This document shows, piece after piece, positions 6,675-7,677 of a DNA stretch of 7,677 bases. Below the pieces are notes generated by a model, which saw only the letters and a program-made list of their open reading frames with translations, was not told where the DNA came from and searched no databases. The stretch lies in the IMG/VR virus record IMGVR_UViG_2675903650_000001; one strand, written 5' to 3'. Position numbers and translations under genes: made by a program. Origin of the DNA: a virus. Its lineage: Monodnaviria; Loebvirae; Hofneiviricota; Faserviricetes; Tubulavirales. Each line of letters opens with the position of its first letter. Within the stretch, counting starts at the first letter, position 1.

Positions 6675-6711
6675 ATCTTCATGACTGAAAAACAGCACTT
6701 AACGGTATAAC

Positions 6712-7677
6712 ATGATGAGATTGATTAACTTACTGACAGCATTTCTTTTTTTGACTTCGGCGTGTGTGCATGCCTCGTCTCCGGCCTTTTTTGTTGACCG
6801 TATTCCGCTCAATGCAGCGATACAGCTGGCTCAGGAAGATATTTTCAGGCGTCAGTATGCGTTGCCGCCTGAACTTGCCAGCGATACCCGTCCGGTGACG
6901 CTGGACTTAAGTCTGACGGGCGATCAGAAAAAACAGCGTGAAGAGTATGTGCGCTGGCTCAGACAACTGAATATTTCTGTTGAGACTCGTAATGGCGTGG
7001 ATCATTATCGCTCGTTTAAACCCGTGGCTGCGCCGGAAAAACTGGTTTCATGGGTATTTTATGAGGTGCAGACAGGGCGCTCTGAAGGTTCGGGGCTGGC
7101 ACTGGCTGCAAAACTGTTATCAGGGCGTTTTGGTGTCAGCGTGGGTTCCTCATCCTCGATGGGGAATTACATTTCATTCAGCTCCGGTACGCTGAATGCG
7201 ATGTATGAACTGTTCAGAACAGATAACCGCTTTAAGGTGGTATCCGCGCCGCAGCTGCGCATGGATTCAGGCAAGGAAGCGACGTTTTCTGTTGGTGAAC
7301 AGGTTCCGGTTCTTGGCAGCGTGTCTTATGAGGATGGTAAAGCCGTTCAGTCCGTGACGTATCGTGATTCGGGGGTGATATTCAAAGTTAAGCCGGTTAT
7401 CACGTCGTCGCGTATCAGCCTGAACGTCAATCAGCAGTTAAGTAACTTTGTCAAAACGGATACGGGCGTGAATGATTCGCCAACGTTGCTCAAGCGTGAG
7501 GTGGATACGTCGCTGACTCTGAAAGATGGCGATATTGTGTTGCTGGGTGGTCTGGCAGAAAACAAGGATTCGCAGGCCAACACAGGATTATCATTTCTGC
7601 CAAAGAGCTGGAGTCAGAAGTCTGACGAGAAGAGCCGCACGGATATGGTTATTCTGTTACAGGTCAAAAAAGTTTGA
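6712..7677 (+). CDS. Secretin (gIV-like outer-membrane export channel), 321 aa
   Basis: Signal peptide [22 protein letters not shown]-terminal secretin-type blocks [41 protein letters not shown] and [24 protein letters not shown]. Stop TGA at 7675-7677. Occupies the Ff gIV position after gI. Confidence 0.8.

Follow-up and report, generated by a model that had tools for sequence, protein, structure and literature searches.

We found that the short secretin gene (321 amino acids [aa]) at the end of the viral DNA analyzed here, a stretch of 7,677 nucleotides (nt) from IMG/VR record IMGVR_UViG_2675903650_000001 that we call the window, is likely to have arisen recently, in a single lineage, by an in-frame deletion within the gene of a 402-aa pIV-type secretin. 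This allele would represent a stage of decay in a nonproductive prophage, transcribed by read-through, with the ATGACT/TATAAC hexamers in front of it making up no working promoter. A decaying gene, rather than a new compact design with a promoter of its own, is most likely because the protein has lost its N3 domain and the prophage was already broken by an insertion sequence. The relevant features of the window are listed in Table 1.

Table 1. Features of the window bearing on the secretin gene (gIV analogue)
Feature	Position	Strand	Basis or remark
End (27 nt) of an IS100 copy (IS21 family), lying within the phage replication gene	1..27		Window and contig begin here
Replication endonuclease gene, 3' three-quarters (gII analogue, P2 gpA type)	28..1578	+	Pfam Phage_GPA, E 8.3e-49
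gI/Zot-like assembly ATPase, inner-membrane partner of the secretin	4402..5613	+	Pfam Zot, E 2.5e-9; relatives annotated as zonular occludens toxin domain protein
Repeat array between gI and gIV	5627..6673	+	57-nt motif, then (body, 57-nt motif) x3
Last 57-nt motif copy, candidate primosome-assembly (complementary-strand priming) site	6617..6673	+	Resembles ColE1-type ssiA/n'-pas
gIV leader, 38 nt	6674..6711	+	ATGACT 6681-6686, TATAAC 6706-6711; no Shine-Dalgarno sequence (SD)
Secretin gene (gIV analogue), 321-aa deletion allele	6712..7677	+	ATG 6712, TGA 7675-7677; Pfam and PHROG matches
Predicted signal peptide (residues 1-21, then SS)	6712..6774	+	Read from sequence: basic n-region MMR, hydrophobic core, VHA/SS
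N0-like periplasmic domain (residues 25-101), kept	6784..7014	+	AF2 fold, Foldseek
Deletion junction	7057..7058	+	DNA alignment: 243 nt of relatives absent between the two bases
Secretin beta-barrel core (PF00263, residues 169-316)	7216..7659	+	Pfam

A sequence-only reading of the window had recognized a genuine 321-aa secretin of the pIV type with an intact C-terminal core, and profile searches bore this out. The barrel matched Pfam Secretin at E 5.5e-25 (88 bits; cut-off, 27.5), and the protein matched PHROG 1012, "assembly (protein IV of M13)," at E 3.9e-89, in two separate stretches, the better of which paired residues 108 to 321 with profile positions 178 to 400 of 403. In a comparison with the PDB, f1 pIV (7OFH) was the best solved relative of the barrel, with the GspD secretins next. 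The gene order (rep, a gV-like gene, coat genes, gIII [Phage_Coat_A], a gVI-like gene, Zot, and secretin) was the same in relatives. In AF2 models, whose confidence was moderate (mean pLDDT of 64 to 68), a helix at residues 2 to 17 of the 321-aa protein fell within the putative signal peptide, and the N0-like domain comprised five strands and two to three helices in the order beta-alpha-beta-alpha-beta-alpha-beta-beta, with a pLDDT of 76 to 87 in the models of both alleles. Foldseek matches included crystal structures of the N-terminal domains of GspD, XcpQ, MxiD, and EscC (E ~1e-4); the assignment comes from the structure model, no sequence profile naming N0. The N0 domain of f1 pIV has been described with the same layout (PMC8563730). 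A lipoprotein signal (Cys18) was considered and rejected, since the cysteine is not kept in relatives.

In the relatives L001 and L002, the secretin gene encodes 402 aa, and members of the family range from about 375 to 445 aa. Alignment of the window gene with the L001 allele revealed a single 243-nt in-frame gap in otherwise identical DNA: the 966 nt of the window gene are an exact prefix of 346 nt and an exact suffix of 620 nt of that allele, and F116 stands where the 402-aa protein has Y116-I197. The deletion takes out the N3 (Secretin_N) ring domain together with a linker of two residues and the opening 9 residues of the barrel's lead-in strand. It spares the N-terminus, with its signal peptide and N0-like domain, as well as the barrel. 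In the 402-aa form, Pfam placed Secretin_N at residues 115 to 189 (E 0.014, below Pfam's curated cut-off), the AF2 model had N3 at residues 112 to 201 and the barrel thereafter, and alignment to f1 pIV (7OFH) put the end of N3 and the linker at residues 185 to 188. A Pfam search of the 321-aa protein returned no Secretin_N match even at E ≤ 10, and AF2 still predicted the strands of its barrel. The idea of a secretin shortened by a reduced N-terminal region was therefore right in that part of the periplasmic N-region is gone and wrong as to which part, the internal N3 being missing and the N-terminal N0-like domain kept. The domain search did not restore a full set of N-domains, N3 being truly absent according to Pfam, AF2, and PHROG.

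Shortness did not turn out to be a trait of the homologue, as had been supposed. The 402-aa secretins of the same E. coli prophage family include WP_077757863.1 (strain 100416), WP_052928429.1 (O166:H15 JNE21-009), and "hofQ" on the Citrobacter youngae plasmid pCY-CTXM-15. These relatives share with the window the leader, the place after gI and the repeat array, and the dif-proximal location; what the window allele lacks is the 243 nt encoding N3 (residues 116 to 197), and outside this deletion it is 100% identical to the 402-aa allele, in strain 100416 over all 966 retained nucleotides. None of the 18 complete E. coli genomes with the junction region carried the deletion, all of them spanning 434 nt where the window has 191. 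In one lineage, of which GCA_001607515.1 is an example, 13 contigs belonging to several assemblies encode the exact 321-aa protein (NCBI EGE8105813.1 and others), with a common chromosomal context and 100% identity over 4.1 kb. An artefact of sequencing or assembly, hiding a true gene of 402 aa, is hardly credible. The assemblies are admittedly short-read drafts that often break within gIV, and the contig begins at a repeat (IS100), but the occurrence of the exact protein on all these contigs argues against an assembly error, and at least five assemblies, made independently with different pipelines (NCBI and Logan), have the identical junction, on contigs of up to 52 kb that are unbroken there.

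Relative to the intact allele, the gene is otherwise free of mutations, an observation that counts against reading it as decayed. Decay has not had time to leave its marks, and the gene offers no substitutions for a dN/dS comparison.

Two more secretin alleles, of 314 and 271 aa, are likewise in frame, and the right deletion end points of all three alleles were identical to the nucleotide. The junction sequences are CATGGGTATTTTATGAGG, CCGGAAATTTATGAGG, and CTGGACTTTTATGAGG, and the sequence that follows the break at the shared right end is TTTATGAGG. Beyond the 314-aa gene lies the gIV-rep intergenic region of the phage itself and not host flank, an arrangement like that of a tandem or replicative copy. 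That all three alleles are in frame could hint at selection keeping the C-terminal part translated. As to the origin of the window deletion, it is flanked by 8-bp repeats (GGGTATAT) 242 nt apart, but simple slippage between them predicts a loss of 242 nt and a frameshift, whereas 243 nt are missing. The shared right end point gained no support as a Rep nick site either: a near copy of its 15-nt motif occurs once, in gene III, and the gIV-rep intergenic region has none. Recurrent inactivation, as 205- to 213-aa "secretins" of the same 90% cluster might represent it, was rejected for the 213-aa form, since in many assemblies this form is a fragment at the start of a contig.

How much the loss of N3 would matter can be judged from its conservation. 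Among 56 homologues from two clades (~45% identity), 12 columns were invariant in N3 versus 5 in N0, and every full-length relative examined had N3. Neither the best 150 representatives nor the sister clade contained a natural N3-less class, the short entries being fragments or assorted truncations; the short members of the sister clade (298 to 344 aa), considered as N3 deletions, are assorted C-terminal or internal truncations. N0 and N3 are common to all secretins (PMC8563730), and in PulD, N3 is reported to be needed for pore or pre-pore assembly (PMC8134430, citing Guilvout 2017; PMC6946019). Because N3 is the best-conserved periplasmic domain and reportedly critical for the PulD pre-pore, the window allele is probably assembly defective and unable to form a stable, properly gated multimeric pore, a judgment by analogy that carries the N3 requirement over from a type II secretion system (T2SS) secretin to phage pIV.

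In the short protein, N0 would be fused straight to the barrel, so that export to the periplasm would probably still be possible. Without N3, this protein probably forms no stable gated pore; the prophage would thus most likely be a nonproductive remnant and the short secretin a stage of gene decay. The host may also favor the loss of a costly, envelope-stressing pore. The lineage assemblies are drafts and leave room for an intact complementing prophage copy elsewhere in the genome.

The prophage carries further damage in its replication gene, which IS100 has cut from its first ~445 nt. Homology to the rep genes of relatives (666 to 667 aa) begins at window position ~28; bases 1 to 27 have no match in the relatives' rep. 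They match ~1,000 E. coli records whose contexts are unrelated, and in one record (L014), where the alignment runs up to ...GTGACA, they are the stretch in which an annotated IS100 element with istA/istB ends. The rep gene is also interrupted by IS100 in the E. coli lineage carrying the 321-aa allele. On the parent contig (L003), a dif-like sequence, AGTGCGCATAATGCATATTATGTTAAAT, lies 56 nt past the secretin stop (7733 to 7760), with two mismatches to what we take to be the E. coli dif sequence, and the host flank of the prophage is ydeP-safA-ydeO. The prophage carrying the gene is integrated at dif, in an E. coli lineage.

The same facts could be read as a compact working secretin, whose barrel multimerizes without N3 and whose N0 docks on pI, so that virions are exported and the deletion is neutral or adaptive for the phage. 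The in-frame state of the three deletion alleles and the phage sequence, not host flank, beside the 314-aa one fit this reading, as do the barrel strands still predicted by AF2 and the apparent retention of N0, the domain contacting pI/pXI in f1. We nevertheless regard it as unlikely, given that the domain lost is the family's most conserved periplasmic one, present in every full-length relative examined and reported as needed for PulD pre-pore formation, that 9 residues of the first barrel strand went with it, and that the rep gene is IS-broken. Very unlikely is a poison or decoy subunit that blocks the pores or titrates the pI of related inoviruses, co-resident or superinfecting, and so limits phage production to the benefit of the host. 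Dominant-negative pIV mutants are known from f1 genetics, and such an action is conceivable because the domains for pI binding (N0) and coassembly (barrel) are kept. The proposal is purely inferential, and the allele is one mutational step old and confined to a single lineage, even if the reading frame is retained, many E. coli genomes hold several related prophage copies (up to 12 places per record), and many assemblies break within gIV, as expected for co-resident variants. It is accordingly a decidedly unlikely proposition that the N3-less secretin is not junk, be it as an N0-only barrel that assembles and gates or as an in-frame dominant-negative or decoy protein against related inoviruses, with the shared end point perhaps marking a site-specific nick or a hot spot of recombination in gene IV. 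If the N0-only barrel did assemble and gate, the view that N3 is indispensable would be overturned.

Under the preferred reading of a decaying allele, the apparent compact phage secretin would be a mutant one deletion step away from the intact form, in a prophage that is decaying, and would not speak for a minimal secretin architecture. Its practical value, a modest one, is that of a pIV-type secretin from which nature has deleted N3: because they show no other difference, the 321- and 402-aa alleles are a ready-made pair for the role of N3 in assembly and gating.

The sequence-only reading had also given gIV a weak sigma70 promoter, with ATGACT at 6681 to 6686, TATAAC at 6705 to 6710, and an 18-nt spacer. 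The first hexamer is where it was placed, but the second lies one base further on (Table 1), and the spacer counts 19 nt, as tested against 16 to 18 nt. ATGACT has 4 of the 6 consensus bases and TATAAC 5 of 6, without the invariant final T. Close relatives share the leader; L002 departs from it by 3 nt (CGC) inserted between the hexamers, which makes its spacer 22 nt long, and its gene is intact. Furthermore, the -10 hexamer ends at 6711 and abuts the ATGs at 6712 and 6715, so that a start ~7 nt downstream would fall within the open reading frame (ORF), past both of them. A consensus scan called no promoter-like site on the plus strand from 5400 to 6979 and no terminator-like site on that strand between gI and gIV; the two sites it gave in the region were no excess over shuffles (1.1 ± 1.1). 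In more distant relatives, gI and gIV overlap by 4 nt, which implies coexpression. We therefore consider it very unlikely that gIV is expressed independently of the gI operon, whether from these hexamers or from another start within the repeats, despite the presence of the hexamers in a leader conserved among close relatives and the 1.1 kb of untranslated sequence between the two genes.

The claim that gIV has no clear SD held up: within 20 nt upstream of the gene, no anti-SD duplex was better than -3.0 kcal/mol, which is background (window mean of -2.6, with 45% of positions as good), compared with -6 to -9.9 for gV, gVIII, gVI, and gI. Judging from the sequence, read-through from gI is the simplest source of a gIV transcript, which most likely crosses the repeat array, and translation would begin at a site without an SD. 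The short gIV should not serve as evidence for an independently regulated gene IV.

Ff pIV (f1/M13/fd; PDB 7OFH; PHROG 1012) is likewise a phage-encoded outer-membrane secretin beside the gI/Zot ATPase, and its signal peptide, N0, and C-terminal double-walled barrel have counterparts in the predicted signal peptide, the N0-like domain, and the barrel of the window protein. Identity over the barrel is only ~27%. The f1 protein is built as N0-linker-N3-barrel (PMC8563730) and so has the N3 that the window protein lacks. The T2SS secretins GspD and PulD are alike in barrel fold and N-domain modules, and the relatives are annotated by PGAP as "type II secretion system protein GspD." GspD, however, consists of N0-N1-N2-N3, often with an S domain with pilotin, whereas the full-length family described here has N0 and N3 and the window protein only the N0-like domain. 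In Ff phages, genes I and IV abut or overlap, in contrast to the 1.1 kb of repeats between them here. By location and gene set, the prophage resembles the dif/XerCD-integrating enterobacterial inoviruses YpfPhi/CUS-1 and UPPhi, filamentous prophages at chromosomal dif, often in tandem, that combine, as here, a replication gene of the P2-gpA type with a Zot-type plus secretion module. It is not UPPhi901, whose genes are ~70% identical to those of IKe/I2-2, whereas the secretin here is only ~28% identical to IKe pIV. The whole window had no match to phage genomes at near-identity, and a distant search against a phage collection gave only vector-like matches to the 57-nt motif of the repeat array and weak secretin matches.

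As the sequence-only reading had stated, gIV is separated from gI by ~1.1 kb of repeats, with 1,098 nt from the gI stop (5613) to the gIV ATG. The 57-nt motif occurs at 5627 to 5683, 5966 to 6022, 6305 to 6361, and 6617 to 6673 (four exact matches versus 0 expected), with bodies of 282, 282, and 255 nt in between and TRF periods of 339 and 312. The suggestion that this detachment may uncouple expression gained no support: the intergenic length is a variable family trait (111, 420, 759/760, 786, or 1,098 nt, with 0 to 3 bodies among relatives), and no terminator-like site intervenes. ORFs inside the repeats (107, 102, 83, and 93 aa) had no Pfam or PHROG match and are probably spurious. The last motif copy is the only one found in all relatives.

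The 57-nt motif matched 353 small plasmids of enterobacteria at 95 to 100% identity over 57 to 60 nt, among them a ColE1-like plasmid (Rop/Mbe), whose matching segment we take to be ssiA, going by the pBR322 sequence. This likeness to plasmid ssiA/n'-pas makes it a candidate primosome-assembly site. Single-stranded DNA folds were no better than shuffles for the motif (z of -0.25 to -1.6) or for the whole 339-nt unit on both strands, and Rfam had no match on the whole window (E ≤ 1) or on two plasmids searched to place RNAI relative to the motif. ColE1 ssiA recruits PriA on displaced single-stranded DNA (PMC3167613); it is a plasmid element, whereas the candidate motif here lies in four copies in a filamentous-phage genome. 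The variable ssiA-like array between gI and gIV, together with the nested deletions with a common end point, may outrank the secretin itself in interest.

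The 321-aa open reading frame at 6712-7677 was recovered by ORF calling, and its secretin identity is borne out by Pfam Secretin (E = 5.5e-25, residues 169-316) and by PHROG 1012, "assembly (protein IV of M13)" (E = 3.9e-89). Comparison of the whole window with complete E. coli genomes identified close relatives at 95-98% identity, whose secretin is annotated as 1,209 nt, or 402 aa. Aligned with these relatives, the window gene showed one 243-nt gap and no other difference. Against the strain 100416 allele, a common prefix of 346 nt and a common suffix of 620 nt make up all 966 nt, and the alleles therefore differ by the deletion alone, which on this comparison is evolutionarily very recent. 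At the junction, a fusion codon for F116 takes the place of Y116-I197. The deleted region has an 8-bp direct repeat GGGTATAT on either side, the two copies lying 242 nt apart; simple slippage between them was rejected, since it would give a frameshift, whereas the real deletion exceeds this by one base and stays in frame. We conclude that the window gene arose in one step, by loss of N3 from a gene of a known kind, in what is most likely a decaying prophage, and its interest is low for that reason. The short secretin noted in the sequence-only reading is largely a real observation; the proposed reduction of the periplasmic region was right in outline but not in kind, being an internal N3 deletion of a 402-aa gene.

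Features of the prophage, its secretin and the deletion alleles (window nucleotides unless stated otherwise)
Feature	Location	Remarks
Replication gene		P2-gpA-type; Pfam Phage_GPA
gV-like gene and small coat genes		In window prophage
gIII		Phage_Coat_A; gVI-like gene also present
gI		Zot-type; followed by repeat array, then secretin
57-nt motif CCGCTCGCCGCAGAYCCRGCGACCGAACGYAGTGAGCGAGTGRTCGAGGAAGCGGAA	5627-5683, 5966-6022, 6305-6361, 6617-6673	Four copies
Bodies	5684-5965, 6023-6304, 6362-6616	282, 282 and 255 nt; third without 27 nt
Signal-peptide helix	Residues 2-17	AlphaFold2, 402-aa protein
N0-like domain	Residues 25-101	AlphaFold2, 402-aa protein; pLDDT 83-87
N3-type domain, first half	Strand 112-116, helix 123-134, disordered Ser-rich loop	AlphaFold2, 402-aa protein
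N3-type domain, second half	Strands 157-161 and 164-169, helix 171-184, strand 190-201	AlphaFold2, 402-aa protein
Barrel	After N3-type domain	AlphaFold2, 402-aa protein
Deletion alleles	Window 7057/7058 (junction); L015 (prophage with the 271-aa allele) 6002-6817; L016 2591-3406; L008 110-1054	Listed loci

The domain order of the 402-aa protein was taken from an AlphaFold2 model (56-sequence alignment, mean pLDDT 67.7). Foldseek of the model returned secretins, with E of ~1e-4 for crystal structures of the N-terminal domains of GspD, XcpQ, MxiD and EscC, and phmmer aligned residues 151-380 to f1 pIV (7OFH), placing ...VDVPAQGVVVTGYIYEVQ on pIV ...VDLPTDQILIEGLIFEVQ. Pfam Secretin_N matched the 402-aa form weakly, at residues 115-189 (E = 0.014, under the curated cut-off), and a search of the window protein for the full set of N-domains gave no Secretin_N match even at E ≤ 10. 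By the published boundaries of f1 pIV (N0, 1-88; a linker; N3, 108-172; a two-residue linker; secretin, 175-405; PMC8563730), the deletion takes out N3, apart from its first four strand residues, together with the two-residue linker and nine residues at the start of the strand with which the secretin domain opens. Two stretches of the 321-aa protein matched the PHROG pIV profile, the better aligning residues 108-321 with profile positions 178-400 of 403. In the model of this shorter protein, N0 is predicted to be retained and to be followed directly by a strand shortened to 114-120 and by the barrel; the junction is of low confidence, and agreement among the five models is poorer than for the full-length protein.

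N3 is the best-conserved periplasmic part of this family: between two clades sharing ~45% identity, 12 columns are invariant in N3 versus 5 in N0. N0 and N3 are common to all secretins, and N3 mutations alter gating (pIV structure paper, PMC8563730); for assembly of the PulD pore or pre-pore, PMC8134430 (citing Guilvout 2017) and PMC6946019 state that N3 is required or the only region known to be critical. Since N3 is conserved, reported to be needed in PulD and tied to gating by its mutations, we infer, by transfer from T2SS and f1 work, that the 321-aa protein would be exported but defective in assembly or gating. As a natural deletion, the allele offers a possible test case for what N3 does in phage secretins.

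The window corresponds to nt 1-7,677 of contig LOIG01000188.1, from the E. coli draft genome GCA_001607515.1, and ORF calls and Pfam reveal a filamentous (inovirus) prophage in it. In the parent contig (L003), a dif-like site AGTGCGCATAATGCATATTATGTTAAAT lies 56 nt past the secretin stop (7733-7760), adjoining ydeP, with the host genes ydeP-safA-ydeO beyond it. The prophage is accordingly an integrated inovirus of the dif/XerCD type, as are YpfPhi/CUS-1 and UPPhi; it was judged distinct from UPPhi901, since its secretin and IKe pIV share only ~28% identity. In tandem copies (L001, the strain 100416 relative, 6008-6045), the corresponding phage site is AGTGCGCATAATGTGACACGCGTTATGTTGAAA, with a longer central region than in AGTGCGCATAATGCATATTATGTTAAAT.

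Positions 1-27 are non-phage: the same 27 nt occur in ~1,000 E. coli records in unrelated contexts, and in one such record they are the terminal 27 nt of an annotated IS100 (IS21 family), aligned up to ...GTGACA. Homology of rep to relatives begins at ~28, ~445 nt inside the 2,001-nt gene, and sister contigs of the lineage begin at the same IS100/rep point; rep is therefore IS-interrupted in this lineage. Because the contig begins within the IS100 end inside rep, the "rep" ORF of 518 aa that had been listed with its start at GTG 22 is an artefact of the junction. Two lesions in one small prophage, the broken rep and the secretin deletion, are consistent with ordinary decay. In the O166:H15 JNE21-009 relative (L002), an IS110-family "RNA-guided transposase" gene (2580-3545) has the host hcxB flank on one side and the prophage on the other, and ends 2 nt before the start of an intact phage rep. 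Gene III contains a Gly/Ser-rich tandem repeat (window 3278-3529; periods 15, 30, 39 and 78 nt) of variable length, the protein measuring 454 aa in the window and 451 and 461 aa in relatives. Length variation of g3p linkers has been described for other inoviruses.

A 191-nt probe spanning the junction was run against complete E. coli genomes, and the deletion was absent from all 18 of the 18 that matched the full probe, in two pieces spanning 434 nt. The exact 321-aa protein was present in 13 contigs, which come from several independent assemblies (among them NCBI EGE8105813.1 and a Logan assembly), a recurrence on which an assembly artefact was rejected. All contigs with the allele have the same chromosomal context and show 100% identity throughout 4.1 kb, host flank included. 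We conclude that this is a genuine allele, passed on within a single lineage. Close homologues measure 400-415 aa and those of a sister clade (Pasteurellaceae, Arsenophonus and others) 374-385 aa; among the 150 best representatives (50% clustering), most have 385-445 aa and align over their full length, and the short ones are C-terminal fragments. Short sister-clade members carry assorted truncations, none of them an N3 deletion, and database "secretins" of 211-213 aa are contig-start fragments. In at least 13 assemblies, contigs (L017-L020) begin at one shared position inside gIV, just before ..GVVVTGYIYEVQ, as would be expected if each genome held several prophage variants with the same downstream sequence but a differing Ser/Gly-rich N3 loop upstream.

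Three in-frame secretin alleles (321, 271 and 314 aa) have the same right end to within one base, immediately before TTTATGAGG, and different left ends. The 271-aa form, in the same IS100-broken prophage adjoining ydeP, lacks 150 nt more, with 2-nt microhomology, and has one repeat body only; the 314-aa form, on a 1.4-kb contig running into the phage's own gIV-rep intergenic region, lacks 18 nt more and has one amino-acid change. Such alleles could be either nested secondary deletions from the exact first junction or recurrent hot-spot events. A Rep nick site at the shared right end was unsupported, as a search with the flanking 15-mer gave one near copy in gene III and zero in the gIV-rep intergenic region. 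A 15-nt motif, GGT(A/G)TATTTATGAGG, occurs in gene III (..GCIYEA..; L001 1534-1548, window ~3150) and in gene IV (..GYIYEV..; L001 5330-5344, window deleted segment), where it spans the right deletion end point; its occurrence in both genes is probably a coincidence. Between the prophages of the 271-aa allele and of the window (L015 1-5963 versus L003 32-6022), there are 60 substitutions over 6 kb with a nearly identical IS100 break, gIV and host flank, a pattern that suggests recombination between co-resident prophage copies.

A promoter of its own and uncoupling from the gI operon had been proposed for gIV. ATGACT does lie at 6681-6686, but TATAAC is at 6706-6711 rather than 6705-6710, making the spacer 19 rather than 18 nt; the end of this -10 lies one base before the ATG, and a transcript from there would lack the start codon. 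In L002, where the gene is intact, a CGC insertion widens the spacer to 22 nt. Consensus scans, with totals at shuffle level, gave no + strand promoter-like site in 5400-6979 and, from gI to gIV, no terminator-like site on that strand, leaving the proposal unsupported. The reported lack of a clear SD held (best anti-SD duplex -3.0 kcal/mol versus a window-wide mean of -2.6, other phage genes reaching -6 to -9.9), as did the separation of ~1.1 kb, gIV starting 1,098 nt past the gI stop at 5613. Among relatives this gap is 111 nt with one 57-nt motif in L002, 420 nt in L015, ~760 nt in both L001 and L007, and 786 nt in the copy on a Citrobacter youngae plasmid; more distant inoviruses have a 4-nt overlap of gI with gIV. 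Given the scans, the unsuitable -10, the variable gap and this overlap, read-through from gI with weak translation initiation would be the simplest source of gIV mRNA.

The intervening array (5627-6673) consists of four 57-nt motifs and three bodies. The motif is 96-100% identical to a segment in 353 small enterobacterial plasmids, ColE1-like and other (one a Rop/Mbe ColE1-like plasmid), which probably corresponds to the ssiA/n'-primosome assembly site by the origin of pBR322. The motif is probably an ssiA/n'-pas signal and thus a candidate complementary-strand origin of the phage, in four copies; such a priming signal would be sensible in a single-stranded phage. On single-stranded DNA, ColE1 ssiA recruits PriA (PMC3167613). 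The 57-nt motif folds no better than shuffles, and the 282-nt body gave no Rfam match, no Pfam or PHROG match for its ORFs and no notable ssDNA fold. Prophages that are otherwise near-identical have anywhere from 0 to 3 bodies; one of these prophages resides on a Citrobacter youngae IncF/IncHI plasmid.
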